NCBI GenBank assembly: GCA_964390745.1
Contig: CAYMIK010000005.1
Coordinates: 1-56,612 of the forward strand
Length of the DNA: 56,612 bases
Reading direction: 5' to 3'
From: an uncultured Candidatus Saccharibacteria bacterium
Lineage (GTDB): Bacteria > Patescibacteriota > JAUYIX01 > CAYMIK01
Every line of letters starts with the position of its first letter. The first letter of the stretch is position 1. Position numbers and translations under genes: made by a program. This document shows, one piece after another, positions 16,265-55,361 of the stretch. Below the pieces are notes generated by a model. The model worked only from the letters and a program-made list of their open reading frames with translations. It was not told where the DNA came from and made no database searches.

Positions 16265-16280
16265 TTATAGCATCAAATAA

Positions 16281-16300
16281 CTTGCTCGACGTCGAGCAAG
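16281..16300. repeat. perfect 20-bp palindrome upstream of the tRNA cluster
   Basis: CTTGCTCGACGTCGAGCAAG. Confidence 0.85.
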
Positions 16301-16343
16301 AAGATGCAGATACTCTATCACGCTTCCCTATTTATTGCAAGGC

Positions 16344-18086
16344 TCATTCCGTCGCTTGCTGAAAGCAGGTCTCACAAAAGACTTTTTCACTTCTATCTGG
16401 AGCAAAGGTTGTTTCAAATTCATTTGTGCAGCAACCCGTGCCTGCATGTTTATGATCAAGTTCGCACATACATTGCCGATGGTGAAGTTGCAAAGGATTG
16501 CGCTTCCCCATTCTTTCGTGGTGTCGACAGTTGTGACACCTTGAAGGCAACGGCAAGCCCATTTCCCGATAAAATGCGAGCTCTTGAGGAATAACCTTAA
16601 ACGCTTTTGTGCAACCATGCTGACACATACCATTGTCGTCACACGGCAAGAGCTCTTTTGTTACCTCATCTTTCACTTCGACAATTGAGTCAGGAATCTT
16701 TTCGAGTGTTGCGGTGAACGTATTGTCTGTATGCGTTTTTGGAACAAATCCGAATTTCTTTATCTCACCAGGAGGCAATGGAAAATATTCTTGCGCAATC
16801 GTCTCTTCGTATGGAGTAAGCGCAAATTCTGGTGGGAAAAATTCGCCGTATGAGTATACCCGACCGAGAGAATCGCGGTACGGCATGTCTTTCATGTGTT
16901 GGATAATTTTATCTTTCAAAGCAAAGTACTCTTCTTTCGTGTACTGTTTATTAAAGATACAGTACGATGCATTTTTTAACCCTACACATGCAAAAAGATC
17001 GTGACCATTAATACAGTTGGCAACATATTCAATATCGGAGAAGGTCAACCTTCCGTTCGTTACATCCTTCGAAACAGCCAAGAGCGAAAGCTTCACGTTG
17101 TAGCCACCAGCTTCTTCCAGCTCGTAGCAAAGTTCTCCTCCTGCAATGGTAATGTCATAACAATCCTTGGACTTCACAAACAAAATATACTGATTGTATT
17201 TGCAATCTTCGAGATCGTTACAAACAAATGATTGTTCTGCATTCTTACAGTGGTTAAGGTAATCGCCCGTAACATCTTCGTTGCCAACACCGTGAATGTA
17301 CTTTTGCGGCAGCGCAAGTCGAAGCCTCATCACCTCATCCTGAACGTTGCGTATCCCCTTTCGGCTCCCAAGTTGAAGCTCTGCAACTTTCTTTTCGTAC
17401 TCTTCTTTTGAATACTGTTCGTTAAAGATGCAGTAACTCTTGTGTTTCAAATTCACACATCCGACACAATCGTGACAATCCCGGAGATTATATGAATACG
17501 AGACATTCGTGCAACCGAAACAATCCTGGCAACTTACGCATTGGTAGCATCGTTCACAATCGAGACATTCGTAACAGAGCTGACTGTCTCGAAGGTTCGT
17601 ACAGTCAATCGAATTACGTGAGTGTAAGAATTCATTTCCATAGTAGCAATTTTCAGAGTAACCGCTATTGAAAATAAGGTAGCAATTTGTCAGTGAAATT
17701 ACATCACTGCAATACTCACTGTTCGTACCTTCGACGTTATAGGCGTGGCTCCAGGGCACTTCGTGCATGAGTTCACGAAACTGCTCAAAAAATGGTCTGG
17801 AGAAATCGTAATCCCGACCATAGTCTTTTGCGTCCCACTTATCAGAATCCCAATAATCACTATGATAGATTGTCAGATGCGAATCAGGCGGAAAAGGTGA
17901 AAGAACTTTCTTATCACTTCCAACAACATCTCGCATGTAAAGATATCGGGTTCTCCGAAATGCCATTCTTCGAATCATTCGGCACTGGGGGCACCACGTT
18001 GGTTCAGGAACGTTAATTTTATAGTAAAACGACCGGTCCTGATCGGTTATTGTAAAGTCCTTTTTGCAACTTTGACATGAAGGCAT
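16344..18086 (-). CDS. cysteine-rich zinc-ribbon/repeat protein of unknown function (family typical of CPR)
   Basis: N-terminal CQSC and CPQC, DYDFSRPFFEQF, many C-x2-C repeats, C-terminal CHNCRH and VFCETCF. Confidence 0.85.
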   Translation of the reverse strand: MPSCQSCKKDFTITDQDRSFYYKINVPEPTWCPQCRMIRRMAFRRTRYLYMRDVVGSDKKVLSPFPPDSHLTIYHSDYWDSDKWDAKDYGRDYDFSRPFFEQFRELMHEVPWSHAYNVEGTNSEYCSDVISLTNCYLIFNSGYSENCYYGNEFLHSRNSIDCTNLRDSQLCYECLDCERCYQCVSCQDCFGCTNVSYSYNLRDCHDCVGCVNLKHKSYCIFNEQYSKEEYEKKVAELQLGSRKGIRNVQDEVMRLRLALPQKYIHGVGNEDVTGDYLNHCKNAEQSFVCNDLEDCKYNQYILFVKSKDCYDITIAGGELCYELEEAGGYNVKLSLLAVSKDVTNGRLTFSDIEYVANCINGHDLFACVGLKNASYCIFNKQYTKEEYFALKDKIIQHMKDMPYRDSLGRVYSYGEFFPPEFALTPYEETIAQEYFPLPPGEIKKFGFVPKTHTDNTFTATLEKIPDSIVEVKDEVTKELLPCDDNGMCQHGCTKAFKVIPQELAFYREMGLPLPSRCHNCRHHERMGKRNPLQLHHRQCMCELDHKHAGTGCCTNEFETTFAPDRSEKVFCETCFQQATE

Positions 18087-42959: not shown

Positions 42960-43664
42960 ATGCCAGAAAGATTAAAAAAAGCAAAGGAGTTTCTGTTGGA
43001 ACTCATCTTTCCTACTTTTTGCCTCGTGTGCAAAAAAGAGGATGTGAATTTTGTTTGCACTACATGCTCAAGCAAACTCCAGCCGGAGCAATCCGCGGTG
43101 TGCCCCATTTGCCTCAAGACAGAAAGCGAATTCATTTGTTCTTTGTGCCGAGCACAAACACCACTCTCGTCACTCACCTACTGTTTTTCCTACGAAGACA
43201 AAAGAGTGGCGCATCTGATTCATGCATTGAAATATAGAAGCATTCACAAACTTTCAGAATTCTTCGCCGAGAAAATGTTTCAGAAAGTTTCCTATTACCC
43301 GTTCAATGATAGCTGGATCATTATCCCCGTCCCGCTCCATTGGCAGCGAATGAACGAGCGGGGCTACAACCAATCGAAACTGATTTCGGCAAAACTTGCT
43401 GCTCGTTTACATATCACTTTGGAAACAACTGCGCTCGTAAAAACACATTACACCAAAACACAGACAAAATTTTCAAAAGAGGAACGAAGAGAAAATCTTG
43501 CGGGTCAATTTGCTGTCGTAACTCAAGAAAAAGTTATGGGCAAGAATATTCTCCTTGTCGATGACGTGGCTACTACCCTCGCTACCCTTGAGATCTGCGC
43601 TACGACTCTCAAGGGAGCAGGCGCAACAAATGTTTGGGCGCTTACCATTGCTCGGGCTAAATGA
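42960..43664 (+). CDS. comF: ComF family competence protein (phosphoribosyltransferase fold)
   Basis: LIFPTFCLVC double zinc ribbon, PVPLHWQRMNERGYNQS, ERRENL, LLVDDVATT. Confidence 0.92.
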   Translation: MPERLKKAKEFLLELIFPTFCLVCKKEDVNFVCTTCSSKLQPEQSAVCPICLKTESEFICSLCRAQTPLSSLTYCFSYEDKRVAHLIHALKYRSIHKLSEFFAEKMFQKVSYYPFNDSWIIIPVPLHWQRMNERGYNQSKLISAKLAARLHITLETTALVKTHYTKTQTKFSKEERRENLAGQFAVVTQEKVMGKNILLVDDVATTLATLEICATTLKGAGATNVWALTIARAK

Positions 43665-43713
43665 TTGACTTTACGCTCAAAATATCGTAGGTTGAGAGGG
43701 TTCGTATAGTCGC

Positions 43714-48734: not shown

Positions 48735-48850
48735 GCGGCCCCATATTTGTAACATCATTCGCTCAAAAAGTCTAGAGTAAATCATTAAGGAGCGTGATCG
48801 TGCAAAGAATCGCAAAATGGTATATAATAGCGCTACAGAAAAACAAGACG

Positions 48851-49438
48851 ATGGATATCCAAAAAACAAAAAAAGAAACTGCCCGCAGAACGCACTTAGC
48901 GCTCAAAAAACAGCATGCAGATGGCAAAAGCGACACGGGCGATGTTCGAACCAATGAAGAGAAACAGTGGTTTACTACCATTTTTATGGAATGGAATCCT
49001 TTAGAGTTTCGCGAAATGGCTCGAGGCGACAACTGGTACTTGTGGCTCGGCGTTATCACGGCGATTCTGATTACCATTTTCATTCTGACAAAAACCTATA
49101 TTGTTGCTGTCACCTTTTTCTTGGTGGCAGTTGTTTTGGTTATGTTCGCACAGAAACCCTCGAAACGCGTTCGAGTTCGTCTCACCGATACCGGCATCGA
49201 AATTCGTGATAAATTTTACCCATACCACTCACTCAAAAGTTTTTGGATTCTGTACGAGCCGCCACACATTACTACATTAAACTTTGAACAAAAAAGCAAA
49301 GTTACACTGAACATCAATGTTGAAATTGAGAACGAAGATCCCGTAGCCATTCGAGACATCTTGCTGCAGTACCTTCCAGAAGATGAGGAAAAAGAAGAAG
49401 ACATCGTAGACACGATCGCTCGCCGTCTCCGTTTTTAG
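48851..49438 (+). CDS. conserved 2-TM membrane protein with PH-like C-terminal domain
   Basis: EW..LEF..RGDNWY, two TMs, GIEIRDKFYPYHSLKSFWI; start trimmed to MDIQ at 48851. Confidence 0.75.
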   Translation: MDIQKTKKETARRTHLALKKQHADGKSDTGDVRTNEEKQWFTTIFMEWNPLEFREMARGDNWYLWLGVITAILITIFILTKTYIVAVTFFLVAVVLVMFAQKPSKRVRVRLTDTGIEIRDKFYPYHSLKSFWILYEPPHITTLNFEQKSKVTLNINVEIENEDPVAIRDILLQYLPEDEEKEEDIVDTIARRLRF

Positions 49439-49467
49439 TTGACATAAACGCTCCCCTCTTATAGGAT
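49439..49467 (+). promoter_or_regulatory. promoter of tRNA-Arg
   Basis: TTGACA-17-TAGGAT. Confidence 0.7.
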
Positions 49468-49509
49468 AGCAGGAGCTGTTTTGGAATCGCATTTCAATAC
49501 GCCCATCGT

Positions 49510-49586
49510 GCACCCGTAGCTCAGTTGGATAGAGCGTGAGCTTGCGGAGCTCAAGGTCATAGGTTCGAATCCTGTCGGGTGCACCA
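49510..49586 (+). tRNA. tRNA-Arg(GCG), integration target
   Basis: GCACCCG/CGGGTGC stem, TGAGC-TTGCGGA-GCTCA arm, TTCGAAT T-loop, CCA. Confidence 0.95.
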
Positions 49587-51020
49587 ATCAGTACGTGAGG
49601 TCTCATAAATTGCATCGAACGGTTTTTTAAAAGTTATCTTAGCGGAATTTCCAGAAACAAATAAGTTTGAAACTAGGGTCCGAAGCACTTCGGGCTTATT
49701 TTCATCTGCAACGAATTTATAGCTATGGTAAGCGCTTTGTGCCAGTTTGAAAAATTCCTCAACATCTCGAATTATCTCATCATCATTTACGTCAAATTCA
49801 TTCAGTTTCTGCTTTAAACTTTCTTTCTCTGTGGCCAATTGCTGTTGCAATTCGTAGTACGTTTCCTCATTCCCCTCTTCAATGAGTTGATGCTCCAAGA
49901 GCTTCGTCATTTTTGTTTTAACAATTTGGTAGCGGCGCTGAAGCTTTACATGCTCTGCACGCCGAGTTGCGGTGAGCTCATGAACCTTTCGTGAAATAAT
50001 ATCGCGAATCAATTGCATGGTTCCATTATTAAAGTTTATCTTCTTCAGTTCGTCTTCTACGACCTGTTCAATACAGCGTTCTGAAATTGCCTTTTGCTGA
50101 CAGTCCTTGGTTCGGCACAAATAGTATCGGTAGTTTATTTTTGTAATCTGAGGATAGCATGCCCTATGACATAGCATACAAAAAACTTTACCACGAAAGA
50201 TAAAGAAACGCTTTAATTTTTCTTGACTCTTGGGGCGCGTGTTGCTCTCTAGGGACTGTACCTTTCTAAATAGTTCCATGGAAACTATAGGGGCATGCGT
50301 GCCGTTATAGGTTCCACGCAGGAGACCATTGCGTCGAACCCCCATATTGATAACACCAGCGTAAAAAGAATTACTCAACATGCCAGCGATTGAATTTTTG
50401 CTTACTACGTTACCGGACTTTGTCAGCAGTCCCTCCTCTTTCATTACGGTTGCCAATTTTTCAAATGAATATGCCCCTGTAGCGCGTAGTTTAAACATCT
50501 TTAGTATCAACGGTGCCCTATCTCCATCTAAAACCTTCAACCCCTTTCCCGCATTGGCATATCCAAGAGGTGCAGGAAAAGGATATTGTCCTGCTTCGAG
50601 TGACGACTTCATTCCCCGGACAACATTATCTCTGAGGTTGTCTGAATATATGGTTGCTACACCGAAGTGAAAGAAGAACATGAGTGTATCTTTTTCGGTA
50701 TGCACACCGTCAGACGTACGAATCTCCTTAACTTCACCGGTTCGAATTGCATCTATTATTCGACCACCATCAGTACCATTTCGGGCTAGCCGGTCAAGTT
50801 TCCATGTTAGTATCGCCTCTGCGCCTCCCGTTCTAATAAACTCCATCATGTCTAAAAATACTGGGCGACCCGCCTCTTTGGCAGACCTCTCCTCTGTGTA
50901 GCACCGTACTATTTCAAGACCCTTGCTAATCTTAGCCATTTCCTGAAGCTGGTCCGGTATAGATTTAATCTGCTTTTCTTCGGACTCATTTGATTTGCGA
51001 GCATAGATAACATACTTCAT
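49557..51020 (-). CDS. large serine recombinase (resolvase + recombinase + zinc ribbon + coiled coil)
   Basis: YARKS catalytic Ser, WKLDRLAR, APLGY, HAPIVS.ELF, CMLC..C zinc ribbon. Confidence 0.93.
   Translation of the reverse strand: MKYVIYARKSNESEEKQIKSIPDQLQEMAKISKGLEIVRCYTEERSAKEAGRPVFLDMMEFIRTGGAEAILTWKLDRLARNGTDGGRIIDAIRTGEVKEIRTSDGVHTEKDTLMFFFHFGVATIYSDNLRDNVVRGMKSSLEAGQYPFPAPLGYANAGKGLKVLDGDRAPLILKMFKLRATGAYSFEKLATVMKEEGLLTKSGNVVSKNSIAGMLSNSFYAGVINMGVRRNGLLRGTYNGTHAPIVSMELFRKVQSLESNTRPKSQEKLKRFFIFRGKVFCMLCHRACYPQITKINYRYYLCRTKDCQQKAISERCIEQVVEDELKKINFNNGTMQLIRDIISRKVHELTATRRAEHVKLQRRYQIVKTKMTKLLEHQLIEEGNEETYYELQQQLATEKESLKQKLNEFDVNDDEIIRDVEEFFKLAQSAYHSYKFVADENKPEVLRTLVSNLFVSGNSAKITFKKPFDAIYETSRTDWCTRQDSNL
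49567..49587 (+). repeat. att core, tRNA-proximal copy
   Basis: GAATCCTGTCGGGTGCACCAA identical to 55341-55361. Confidence 0.93.
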
Positions 51021-51445
51021 CTTTCCTCAACAATTTTATTAATAGCATCTCGTAGCACGTCGCGGTCTTTTGCGGCCGCTACTTCAATGGATGACACCAT
51101 GATATTCGAAGAGTTTTTGACAAATCCATGTATTTCTAGCATCAACTTTATTGCATTCAAGTTACCATCCTGCACCAAACTGCGTAATTTTACGTAAGCA
51201 TCAAAGACGTCAACGCGGGAATTCTCAAGAAGTTTTTCAGCACACACCGCCATTACAGTTGATATTGGTGGTGTAACGCTCCAGTTATACAAGGTTTTCC
51301 GTGCCACACCAAGTTGCTTTGCCATTTCTTCAAAAGTTTGTGGTTCACGTAGCGACTTTGGAAGTAACCTCCATTCTATGAACTTCTTCTGTTCGGGTGT
51401 AGTTTCTGGGTAATTTGCGAAATTAATTAATTCCATCATACTCAC
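51017..51445 (-). CDS. HTH protein, phBC6A51/terminase-small-subunit-like
   Basis: EEMAKQLGVARKTLYNW HTH; GNLNAIKLMLEI resembles TerS-type G-x-x-x-A-x-K helix; ATGA-coupled to integrase. Confidence 0.65.
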   Translation of the reverse strand: MSMMELINFANYPETTPEQKKFIEWRLLPKSLREPQTFEEMAKQLGVARKTLYNWSVTPPISTVMAVCAEKLLENSRVDVFDAYVKLRSLVQDGNLNAIKLMLEIHGFVKNSSNIMVSSIEVAAAKDRDVLRDAINKIVEER

Positions 51446-51732
51446 TTTTTGGGTTTGAGACTATCTCGTCGGGTCTTCCTATTCTTTCGCTCAAACTTTA
51501 TTTCCTTTGTTAAGAGCTTATTAAAGTATGCTGCTGGGTTTTGAATCTTTTCAATATTTGCTCTGCGCATTTTTGCCACAGACTTTTTGAATGGCATAAT
51601 TCCATTCCATTTATAGGTGTGGAGAAAGAAGTCCATGAATGGTTCAACTAGTTCCGATGCTAACATCCAGAGATAACTTTCATCATTGTTGGTTGGCTTG
51701 TAGCTCTGAGTCTTTATCGTATTTTTATACAT
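51442..51732 (-). CDS. hypothetical protein with IQNPAAYF motif (replication-protein C-terminal-like)
   Basis: IQNPAAYFNKLL; basic C-terminus; ATGA overlap with next gene. Confidence 0.6.
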   Translation of the reverse strand: MYKNTIKTQSYKPTNNDESYLWMLASELVEPFMDFFLHTYKWNGIMPFKKSVAKMRRANIEKIQNPAAYFNKLLTKEIKFERKNRKTRRDSLKPKK

Positions 51733-51796: not shown

Positions 51797-52240
51797 TTAC
51801 GGTGGGAACTTTAATCGCTCACTTAAGCCATCTCTTTGTTCCTTTAACCTCTGCTCTGCCTTTACATTATTCTGCGCCTGCTCGCCCATTGAACCGCCAA
51901 AGCTCTGCATCAGTTCTTGAGGACTGGTTGTATTTTTAGCTTTTACAACAGGATAACCAACAAGCGCGACTTCTACGCCAAGTCTTTTCCCTTGCTGTAG
52001 CGCTTTAGCTATATATTTCTTATCTGCTAGTCTCCTTATCGTTCTACCAACCTGGTCCACGCTTAGTCCGGAACGTCTTGAAATATCAGCGTAGATACAT
52101 TTAGTCGTTCCTGTATAAAAAGATGCCTTGAGAAAGAGAAGGCACAGAATGCCAAATTCCTCAAAGTCAATCGTACCCGCATCTAAATCATATGCATACT
52201 GTCTCGGTACTTGTGCGAAGTTTTTTTGCTTTTGAACCAT
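51797..52240 (-). CDS. winged-HTH protein, phage replication initiator N-terminal-like
   Basis: NFAQVP start, ISRRSGLSVDQVGRTIRRLADKKYI wHTH; GGGAG SD. Confidence 0.65.
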   Translation of the reverse strand: MVQKQKNFAQVPRQYAYDLDAGTIDFEEFGILCLLFLKASFYTGTTKCIYADISRRSGLSVDQVGRTIRRLADKKYIAKALQQGKRLGVEVALVGYPVVKAKNTTSPQELMQSFGGSMGEQAQNNVKAEQRLKEQRDGLSERLKFPP

Positions 52241-52242
52241 TT

Positions 52243-52310
52243 TGACACTCCCAGTTGCCCATTTTGGTTCAGTAAGCAGGGAGTGTCATTATTCCCATAC
52301 TGAACCAAAA
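52243..52310 (-). promoter_or_regulatory. interleaved double inverted repeat (pseudoknot-like) over the RBS of the wHTH gene
   Basis: TGACACTCCC(52243-52)/GGGAGTGTCA(52279-88) and TTTTGGTTCAGTA(52262-74)/TACTGAACCAAAA(52298-310), both perfect. Confidence 0.8.
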
Positions 52311-52328
52311 CAGGAAACGAATTACTTA

Positions 52329-52448
52329 TTAATCTGACTTCGAATTAATGAATTTATTTAAACTTAAATCATTCTTCTTTTCCTTGAGCCAAAGCTCAAA
52401 AAGAAGGTTTATGTATTCTTCAAAATTTTTTTGTTCTTCGCTATTCAT
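52329..52448 (-). CDS. possible 39-aa peptide below ORF-track threshold
   Basis: Hand translation MNSEEQKNFEEYINLLFELWLKEKKNDLSLNKFINSKSD*. Confidence 0.35.
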   Translation of the reverse strand: MNSEEQKNFEEYINLLFELWLKEKKNDLSLNKFINSKSD

Positions 52449-52457
52449 AATTCCAAT

Positions 52458-52503
52458 AAAAAAACCCAGCTAAAAGCCAACTTGGTTGGTTTTCAACTGG
52501 GTT
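52458..52503 (-). terminator. intrinsic terminator after zinc-finger gene
   Basis: Minus strand AACCCAG..AAAACCAAC-CAA-GTTGGCTTTT..CTGGGTTTTTTT. Confidence 0.7.
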
Positions 52504-52551
52504 CATTTAAACGCGGTTGCCCGCGCTATTTCTTATACCCACAATAGGTTT

Positions 52552-53735: not shown

Positions 53736-55055
53736 ATGGCGAAGCTGACCTTAACCTTAACTGAGATGCAAGATTTAGCCAAAACTCGTGGTGGCGAGTG
53801 TTTGTCTTCTGTTTACGTTAATTGCGACATGAAGCTTAAATGGAAATGCGCAAAAGGTCATATTTGGACAGCGTCTGCGACCAGTGTTAAGCATAATGGT
53901 TCGTGGTGTTACGAATGCTCAAGGTCAAGAAAATATACCCTGAGCGATATGCAAAAATTAGCGTCCAAGCACAAAGGGAAGTGCCTATCAACAGAATATA
54001 TCAATCGGCACAGTAAACTTGAATGGGCCTGCGAGAAAGGTCACACATGGAGTACTGCCCCTAAATATATTCTAGATGGAAGTTGGTGTCCAAAGTGCGT
54101 CCATGAGAGTTTACTTAAGACGAAAGAGGATATGGTTAAACTTGCTAGTAAAAATGGCGGCATTTTGCTTTCTACAAAATACATAAATGCCAAAACTAAG
54201 CTCAAATGGCAATGCAAGAATGGTCACATTTGGGAGACCAATCCTGACAATGTGAAAAAAGGTTCATGGTGCCCATTTTGCAATAAAAATTACCTTAGTT
54301 TAGAAATATGTAGAAAGATGGCAGAAAGTAGGGACGGTAAGTTTCTTAGCCAAACATACAAAAACCAACTAACACCATACTTATGGCAATGTAAACATGG
54401 TCATACATGGAAGACAACTACCATGGTAATTAGACGAGGAGCTTGGTGCCCAGACTGTGCTAGAACTGAGATGGGGCTCAATTCAAGAAAATATCTCATT
54501 TCGGACTTGCAAGTATACGCGAAAAAGAAAGGTGGCCTCCTGTTATCAAGGCAGTACACTTTAGCAAAAATTAAATACGATTGGAAATGTAAAAAAGGGC
54601 ACACATGGAAAACTGCGTGGTGTCAGATGAAAATAACCGAGTCGTGGTGCCCAGTGTGCAATGACAGTAAAATGGAAACTTATTGTCGACAAATACTCGA
54701 ACGTAAACTCAAAACGCTGTTTCCAAAAAAAAGACCAGATTGGTTGCGCAATGACCGTGGCTACCTCTTAGAACTTGATGGCTACTCAGAAAAACTCGCG
54801 CTAGCCTTTGAGTACAATGGTGAACAACATGATAAGCGTATTGTCTATTTTCACAAAACAGAGAATGCACTCCTTACTCAAAAGAAAAATGACTACATCA
54901 AAATTCTGACTTGTCTAAATAAGAGAGTGTATCTTATTACTATTCCGTTCTTCGTACCAGCTAATAAACTTGAGATGTTTATTCAGGCGCATCTAAATAA
55001 TTACAACAAACTCAAAAACGACCAGGCGCTATACGATGCTTGGTTTAAAATATAG
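53736..55055 (+). CDS. five-repeat zinc-ribbon protein with C-terminal PD-(D/E)XK (Vsr-like) endonuclease domain
   Basis: 5 x W-x-C-x2-GH-x-W...WCx2C repeats; LELDGY..LAFEYNGEQH. Confidence 0.8.
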   Translation: MAKLTLTLTEMQDLAKTRGGECLSSVYVNCDMKLKWKCAKGHIWTASATSVKHNGSWCYECSRSRKYTLSDMQKLASKHKGKCLSTEYINRHSKLEWACEKGHTWSTAPKYILDGSWCPKCVHESLLKTKEDMVKLASKNGGILLSTKYINAKTKLKWQCKNGHIWETNPDNVKKGSWCPFCNKNYLSLEICRKMAESRDGKFLSQTYKNQLTPYLWQCKHGHTWKTTTMVIRRGAWCPDCARTEMGLNSRKYLISDLQVYAKKKGGLLLSRQYTLAKIKYDWKCKKGHTWKTAWCQMKITESWCPVCNDSKMETYCRQILERKLKTLFPKKRPDWLRNDRGYLLELDGYSEKLALAFEYNGEQHDKRIVYFHKTENALLTQKKNDYIKILTCLNKRVYLITIPFFVPANKLEMFIQAHLNNYNKLKNDQALYDAWFKI

Positions 55056-55340: not shown

Positions 55341-55361
55341 GAATCCTGTCGGGTGCACCAA
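55341..55361 (+). repeat. att core, distal copy (duplicated tRNA-Arg 3' end)
   Basis: GAATCCTGTCGGGTGCACCAA. Confidence 0.93.

Follow-up and report, generated by a model that had tools for sequence, protein, structure and literature searches.

What do two perfect inverted repeats do when they interlock over the ribosome-binding site of a mobile element's operon? The locus lies on contig CAYMIK010000005.1 of an uncultured Candidatus Saccharibacteria bacterium, of which we analysed a stretch of 56,612 nucleotides (nt), hereafter the window. It carries an element of ~5.8 kb integrated in the 3' end of tRNA-Arg(gcg), and the repeats immediately precede the element's gene for a 147-amino-acid (aa) predicted winged-helix DNA-binding protein, the first in a winged-helix/p96/helix-turn-helix (HTH)/integrase operon. 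We put at roughly 50% the probability that the repeats act in cis in the mRNA leader and limit translation initiation, the Shine-Dalgarno (SD) region of the winged-helix gene being paired with an upstream anti-SD segment. On this reading we infer that the gene's transcript includes the upstream arms, A and B, and that a pseudoknot arises in the cell and reduces translation.

Interleaved repeats at the ribosome-binding site

The leader is built from four arms in the interleaved order B-A-B'-A'. On the minus strand, to which all leader coordinates refer, it reads CCTG TTTTGGTTCAGTA TGGGAATAA TGACACTCCC TGCT TACTGAACCAAAA TGGGCAACT GGGAGTGTCA AA ATG GTTCAAAAG. Arm B (TTTTGGTTCAGTA, 13 nt, 52310-52298), read directly and placed by script, is followed by the 9-nt linker 1 (TGGGAATAA, RNA UGGGAAUAA, 52297-52289), the 10-nt anti-SD arm A (TGACACTCCC, 52288-52279), a TGCT spacer (52278-52275) and the 13-nt arm B' (TACTGAACCAAAA, 52274-52262). 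The 9-nt linker 2 (TGGGCAACT, RNA UGGGCAACU, 52261-52253), which would be loop 3 of a pseudoknot, leads into the 10-nt arm A' (GGGAGTGTCA, 52252-52243). A' ends two nucleotides (AA, 52242-52241) ahead of the ATG at 52240-52238, the first possible start codon of the 147-aa open reading frame (ORF; 51797-52240). An inverted-repeat search found all 23 core pairs of B:B' and A:A' to be Watson-Crick, with no mismatch. A preliminary description made from the DNA letters had proposed this B-9-A-4-B'-9-A'-AA-ATG layout with perfect helices; it proved exact to the base, and a script returned the same interleaved, H-type order.

One arm of the repeats contains the SD itself. The motif GGGAG (52252-52248) lies inside A', well placed 7 nt before the ATG, and similar SDs are used by other genes of the element and by host genes. 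The preliminary description was also right on this point and on two further details: both 9-nt linkers start with TGGG, and B' has an alternative partner at the start codon. There a third copy of TGGTTCA (52239-52233, within a start-codon region spanning 52233-52240) could form 7 base pairs (bp) with B'. The hairpin loops would measure 23 nt for B:B', which contains A, and 26 nt for A:A'; A:A' alone folds as a hairpin of 10/10 bp at -17 kcal/mol. No further copies of A or B were found in the element, which argues against dispersed protein-binding sites.

On the mRNA strand the B helix extends beyond its perfect core. CCUG (52314-52311) pairs with UGGG (52261-52258) through two G-U pairs and, beyond a U/C mismatch, GUU (52318-52316) pairs with AAC (52256-52254), so that the RNA-only extension covers 52311-52318 on the 5' side and the extended helix has ~20 pairs. 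The inverted-repeat search likewise returned the B repeat and its extension as 21-nt arms with an 86% match.

Small ORFs and a short repeat also lie within the leader. Two ATGs, neither with an SD, arise where the final A of B and that of B' run into the TGGG linkers. One opens a 9-codon ORF (52298-52269) that runs through A and stops at a TGA inside B', and the other a 24-codon ORF (52262-52188) that crosses the main start out of frame. The sequence CAAAATGG is present twice, at 52266-52259 and 52244-52237.

The interleaved repeats are non-random. Ten perfect inverted repeats, each at least 10 nt long with a gap of 3-40 nt, occur in the window, and only the pair described here is interleaved. 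Dinucleotide shuffles of the whole window produced an interleaved pair with both arms of at least 10 nt in 1 of 200 cases, and repeats of at least 13 nt arose at a mean of 0.03 per shuffle. Run over 975 kb of other loci, the same detector returned two unrelated interleaved cases, neither at a ribosome-binding site. An Omnitrophota contig (L078, 1605-1694) carries a second interleaved pair, with perfect inverted repeats of 10 and 15 nt, within a serine-integrase coding region.

A dedicated pseudoknot score separates the leader from its shuffles. We enumerated all two-helix H-type pseudoknots, taking stacking energies from ViennaRNA and adding penalties of the Dirks-Pierce type as well as simple steric limits. 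On this crude, home-made energy model the best H-type pseudoknot of the native 90-nt stretch scored -31.4 kcal/mol (14 + 10 bp), compared with a mean of -5.8 kcal/mol in 500 shuffles (standard deviation 2.9, minimum -17.7; native z = -8.9).

Folding, transcription and rival explanations

Folding calculations predict two structures for the leader, one with the SD open and one with it closed. The nested minimum free energy (MFE) fold is an extended B hairpin, comprising GUU/AAC, the U/C mismatch, CCUG/UGGG and the 13 perfect pairs. Its inner helix joins GGGA of linker 1 to UCCC of A, so the anti-SD is masked and A' is left unpaired with A. B:B' has a probability of ~1.0 in the nested ensemble, and forcing A:A' alone costs ~5 kcal/mol (-27.2 vs -32.5 kcal/mol). 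If B:B' is retained and A:A' is added to it as a pseudoknot, the estimate is -30 to -31.4 kcal/mol; the nested MFE lies at -30.2 to -32.5. In these models the SD-closed pseudoknot and the SD-open extended hairpin are near-isoenergetic, within the error of such estimates.

Loop geometry permits the pseudoknot and sets it against the extended hairpin. Measured on A-form phosphate coordinates, the 9 nt of loop 3 would span ~45 Å across 13 bp in the shallow groove, and the 9 nt of loop 1 ~25 Å across 10 bp in the deep groove; both are feasible. With the 4-bp extension kept, loop 3 would shrink to 5 nt for ~56 Å, which is unfeasible, so the extension must open in the pseudoknot and the two folds are mutually exclusive. 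Pseudoknot-capable folding, which the preliminary description had suggested as a check, thus finds an H-type pseudoknot plausible both energetically and sterically, with an energy close to that of the nested MFE and loops that are long enough. The interleaved arms and groove-crossing loops that characterise H-type pseudoknots are both present; formation of the structure is predicted.

These folds suggest how SD occlusion could work. During transcription, hairpin B:B' would form first and display A (UGACACUCCC) in its 23-nt loop. As A' (GGGAGUGUCA) emerged it could pair with A, producing a pseudoknot of the hairpin-loop/3'-tail H-type in which the SD is buried. In the competing nested fold, extended B:B' and the pairing of GGGA with UCCC of A would mask the anti-SD and leave the SD open. 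Since the two folds have about the same energy, the leader could be either a constitutive brake or a two-state gate. A more ambitious version, which we regard as doubtful, is a bistable RNA device without sequence relatives, in which an unusually long-stemmed H-type pseudoknot (13-14 + 10 bp) hiding the SD alternates with an extended hairpin masking the anti-SD. It would control translation of the regulator-integrase operon, in a tRNA-integrated element whose host probably belongs to the Patescibacteria; a factor encoded by the element or by a helper would throw the switch, which would thereby serve as the element's induction checkpoint.

Transcription of the operon bears on every reading of the repeats. 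A strong intrinsic terminator lies upstream (52509-52457, minus strand; -35 kcal/mol, z -6.5, then U7), and expression of the operon therefore requires either a promoter of its own or read-through. The best sigma-70-like site in the 230-nt interval lies inside the repeats: ATGACA-17-CAAAAT (52289-52261), a candidate promoter by consensus match, 9/12. Its -35 hexamer includes the first 5 nt of A and its -10 overlaps the last 5 nt of B', placing the predicted start near 52255. The candidate resembles the element's leftward promoter, TTGACA-17-AAAAAT, and about three sites like it are expected by chance in the scanned region. Sequences upstream of host tRNA genes (43620-43713, 49420-49509, 16265-16350 and 48735-48820) suggest a host promoter form TTGAC(A/T)-17-TAG(G/A)NT. 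The candidate fits this form less well, having no T at position 1 of either hexamer. Divergent promoter-like sites occur at ~52895 and ~52919. A consensus scan for an antisense gene found no plus-strand promoter of at least 8/12 and no U-run after either plus-strand hairpin.

The internal candidate leads to a fold-back form of SD occlusion, to which we give about a third of the weight of that reading. Here the internal candidate would be the real promoter. Transcripts from ~52255 would lack A, B and B' and keep the SD open, and only RNA reading through the terminator would carry A and be silenced. Consistent with this, the SD in a transcript from 52255 is predicted to be 80-87% unpaired at 4 of 5 bases.

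Several features favour an RNA structure over a protein-binding site. The arms, 13 and 10 perfect bp, are longer than a protein half-site, the 23- and 26-nt loops are typical of RNA hairpins and not of operators, and we counted for RNA the G-U pairs that extend the B helix on the mRNA strand only. A set of observations weighs against SD occlusion. The antisense strand folds equally well (z -5.1 vs -4.3), with an inner hairpin of its own that contains G-U pairs; as both strands gain two G-U pairs, in different sub-helices, strand asymmetry is not decisive. The core, being Watson-Crick throughout, fits a DNA-level palindrome just as well. Between the terminator and B the best promoter-like site scores 8/12 and none is convincing, and the internal 9/12 site, if real, would leave A out of the mRNA. 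None of the RNA-seq runs searched contained the locus. Our pseudoknot score rests on a home-made energy model and not on a validated predictor. No usable relative of the gene or leader was present in the collections searched, so no covariation could be obtained, and the genes of the three homologues of the 147-aa protein overlap or abut upstream genes, translationally coupled without a leader.

If the repeats work as DNA, they would most naturally be operators. In that account, which we consider unlikely, ATGACA-17-CAAAAT drives the operon and the arms are bound by the winged-helix (MarR-like) or the zinc-ribbon protein for autorepression, with A over the -35, B' over the -10, A' over +3 to +12 and B over the upstream region. 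The site falls exactly within the repeats, its form recalls the leftward promoter, the terminator creates a need for it, the pairing suits duplex DNA, and the encoded protein is a predicted winged-helix DNA binder of MarR-like topology; MarR-like winged-helix proteins commonly autoregulate. The spacing fits poorly. Both arm pairs lie 36 bp apart centre to centre, ~3.4 helical turns, which places the arms on different helix faces, much too far apart for a dimer to span. The inverted-repeat search found no short-range palindrome of the MarR-operator type, the 13-bp arms (21 with the extension) exceed a half-site, and the missing T in both hexamers and the chance frequency of such sites count against the promoter itself. 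An origin of replication or other structural DNA site, which the preliminary description had also offered, is a more remote prospect; the repeats would then bind an initiator or help to unwind the excised circle, or they would serve in packaging. An AT-rich block (52310-52459, 150 bp, 22-30% GC) adjoins the repeats, upstream of a protein weakly similar to initiator and DnaD-like winged-helix domains, and the operon encodes a small-terminase-like HTH protein. Iterons and direct repeats were not found, the initiator match is marginal (E ~1e-3), and the protein, only 147 aa long, lacks any domain for helicase loading or catalysis. We know of no origin or pac architecture with this interleaved order, and an origin would not explain how precisely A' overlaps the SD and start codon.

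The leader could also serve another role as RNA, which we judge improbable to a similar degree as a replication origin. The extended B helix, about two turns with one mismatch, has the size of an RNase III substrate; cleavage would detach A from A' and open the SD. It might alternatively be a 5' stabiliser, or the leader might be the target of a trans-acting RNA or protein, such as a CsrA-like binder of the GGA-containing motifs in linker 1 and the SD. None of these roles would account for the perfect 10-nt complementarity between A and the SD region. A functionless relic or chance arrangement is very improbable: the locus is a single instance without relatives or demonstrable conservation, but the shuffle statistics and the exact placement on the SD of the operon's first gene speak against it. 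SD occlusion is the reading that we prefer.

The 147-aa protein, its element and their relatives

The 147-aa protein (51797-52240, minus strand) looks like a winged-helix DNA-binding protein with a MarR-like fold, as judged from profile matches and a predicted structure. Pfam gave sub-threshold winged-helix matches (HTH_36 at 20.3 bits against a cutoff of 25, MarR_2 at 16.9 against 27), and NCBIfam and PDB sequence searches gave nothing significant. PHROG 270 and 186, an initiator family and a DnaD-like family, matched at E ~1e-3 over the winged-helix part only. An AlphaFold2 model (predicted local distance difference test score 70) has the MarR-family order alpha1-alpha2-beta-alpha3-alpha4-wing-alpha5-alpha6. 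Nearly all of its top 50 Foldseek matches in the PDB are MarR-family proteins, at template-modelling scores of only 0.34-0.47. The preliminary description had called this a putative replication gene. Only the two PHROG matches support that label, and the predicted fold best fits MarR-family regulators.

Downstream of the leader the gene order winged-helix, HTH, integrase is as the preliminary description proposed. All on the minus strand, the winged-helix gene is followed by p96 (96 aa, 51442-51732), a 142-aa HTH_Tnp_1_2 or small-terminase-like protein (51017-51445) and, at 49557-51020, a large serine integrase with final codons that overlap the tRNA. In the region 49557-49587 the integrase ends ..WCTRQDSNL in the reverse complement of the tRNA-Arg T-arm and acceptor, within the attachment (att) repeat. 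A consensus of 30 integrase homologues, the named ones being Patescibacteria, also ends ...DSN, so the overlap of the integrase 3' end with a tRNA-derived att site may be a family trait.

The boundaries of the element are marked by a 21-bp direct repeat, GAATCCTGTCGGGTGCACCAA, at 49567-49587 (left, in the 3' end of tRNA-Arg(gcg)) and 55341-55361 (right), both on the plus strand. GC content is 38-39% between the att repeats, compared with 44-47% in the flanks. Upstream of the leader, a zinc-ribbon protein gene (52552-52842/52878, minus strand) has its transcript ended by the long-stemmed terminator, as predicted by folding. The small GC hairpin CGCGGGCAACCGCG precedes this terminator (52457-52525 together, minus strand), which separates the zinc-ribbon gene from the regulator-integrase operon. 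A 39-codon ORF, MNSEEQKNFEEYINLLFELWLKEKKNDLSLNKFINSKSD (52329-52448, minus strand), occupies the AT-rich stretch between terminator and repeats. It has a weak ribosome-binding site, and its stop codon lies 18 nt ahead of B and 89 nt ahead of the ATG; we found no family match for it and no promoter of its own. It may be a gene or an AT-rich DNA element. The cargo includes a 439-aa protein (53736-55055, plus strand) with five DUF4379/CapR-type zinc-finger repeats and a strong match (E 1e-59) to a PHROG annotated as HNH endonuclease. Upstream of it lies a 203-aa membrane protein (p203) with a faint superinfection-exclusion match.

Searches for relatives returned distant proteins and no second copy of the leader. 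A word-indexed search of 5.8 billion clusters with the 147-aa protein found only itself, on this contig, and an exhaustive HMMER search found the three homologues, at 32-34% identity. Integrase homologues come largely from Patescibacteria genomes, the closest (45% identity) from an element with different cargo and a different leader. At 80 further integrase-homologue loci (30-34% identity, mostly Patescibacteria) there was no winged-helix, HTH or zinc-ribbon homologue, only marginal matches to p96 and p203, and no comparable interleaved repeat at any ribosome-binding site. Scans of viral contigs found nothing close to the element, and the tRNA was the only match in a phage and plasmid BLAST. 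The exact B+A DNA pattern had zero matches in genome and metagenome contigs; a relaxed B...B' pattern returned 15 unrelated long palindromes and no copy of the leader. The locus is present in wastewater metagenomes. Five wastewater or related DNA runs contain it, each at very low depth; their contigs match the window exactly across the element apart from the tRNA.

A structured leader of another type occupies the corresponding position in the element that has the closest integrase (L001, 1600-2200). A different winged-helix gene lies upstream of int behind a near-consensus promoter, TTGACA-17-TTACAAT. Its 5' untranslated region (UTR) holds a terminator-like hairpin with a U-run, and clustered GGAAAA-type repeats lie further upstream.

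Known RNA families and recombination sites were also considered. Rfam 15 gave no match at the gathering score and no family at E<=10, the best local matches scoring 8-28 bits against thresholds of 39-100. The match to a frameshift element was rejected at 27.8 bits against a threshold of 88, and inspection found no slippery site and no ORF entering the structure, which dismissed a frameshift stimulator. An attP or inversion site was set aside, the att repeats being at the element ends. Serine-recombinase sites would be nested, not interleaved, and inversion spacers are far longer than 23-26 bp.

Comparison with known systems

If SD occlusion by RNA is correct, the leader would be a compact, fully specified case in which an integrase operon is silenced translationally at its first gene. 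The lineage, probably candidate-phyla-radiation bacteria, is one where the regulation of mobile elements is almost unstudied. With two perfect helices, the leader would be an easy target for compensatory-mutation tests and a possible synthetic translational gate. General importance would be modest, as SD occlusion is very common and well understood and this is one unreplicated locus from an uncultured organism.

Plasmid replication genes offer the precedent that the preliminary description invoked, but the analogy fails, its polarity being opposite. Translation of RepZ in IncI plasmids depends on the pseudoknot, whose formation an antisense RNA prevents (PMC8053102). As in IncI-alpha/IncB plasmids (ColIb-P9 repZ, pMU720 repA), a hairpin loop here can pair with a distal segment next to where ribosomes would bind a plasmid-type gene, and a short ORF lies upstream. 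The distal partner in those plasmids lies beside the SD and the pseudoknot activates, whereas here A' contains the SD itself and pairing would repress. Further differences are that the only upstream ORF is uncoupled, ending 89 nt before the ATG; that the consensus scan found no antisense promoter or terminator; that the helices are 10-13 bp instead of a few; and that the proteins are unrelated.

Pseudoknots that bury the SD are known from riboswitches. H-type riboswitches combine a stem-loop helix with a loop/3'-tail pseudoknot helix carrying the SD (PMC7367207), and the SAM/SAH, SAM-II/V and preQ1 classes share the topology predicted for our leader. Unlike them, the leader matches no Rfam family even at E<=10, its 13 + 10 perfect pairs greatly exceed ligand-gated helices in length and stability, and it has no conserved core or ligand logic and no metabolic gene downstream. 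Alternatives between hairpin and pseudoknot at the initiation site also occur in E. coli rpsO/S15, the alpha-operon/S4 and T4 gene 32, where the pseudoknot is the repressed form. The resemblance lies in the alternative structures around the initiation site. Those systems are stabilised by the encoded RNA-binding protein, whereas here the product is a predicted DNA-binding winged helix with nothing linking it to RNA.

By analogy, the nearest functional counterpart is the SD-sequestering 5' UTR of mobile-element genes, as in IS200 and the fold-back of IS10/IS50. At the left end of IS200 tnpA, a terminator stops transcription that enters from outside, and a repeat in the 5' UTR beyond it sequesters the SD (PMC4513863). 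Our locus likewise has an upstream terminator (52509-52457) and an inverted repeat with the SD in its 3' arm (A:A', 10/10 bp). In IS10/IS50 the 5' arm lies upstream of the native start, so that only read-through transcripts are silenced by fold-back; A would occupy the same position if the internal promoter is real. In contrast to all three insertion sequences, the leader has two interleaved perfect repeats instead of one hairpin, shows no sequence similarity and no evident antisense RNA gene, and precedes a winged-helix gene heading an integrase operon and not a transposase. It would thus be a variant, with two interleaved helices, of the well-known principle of SD occlusion.

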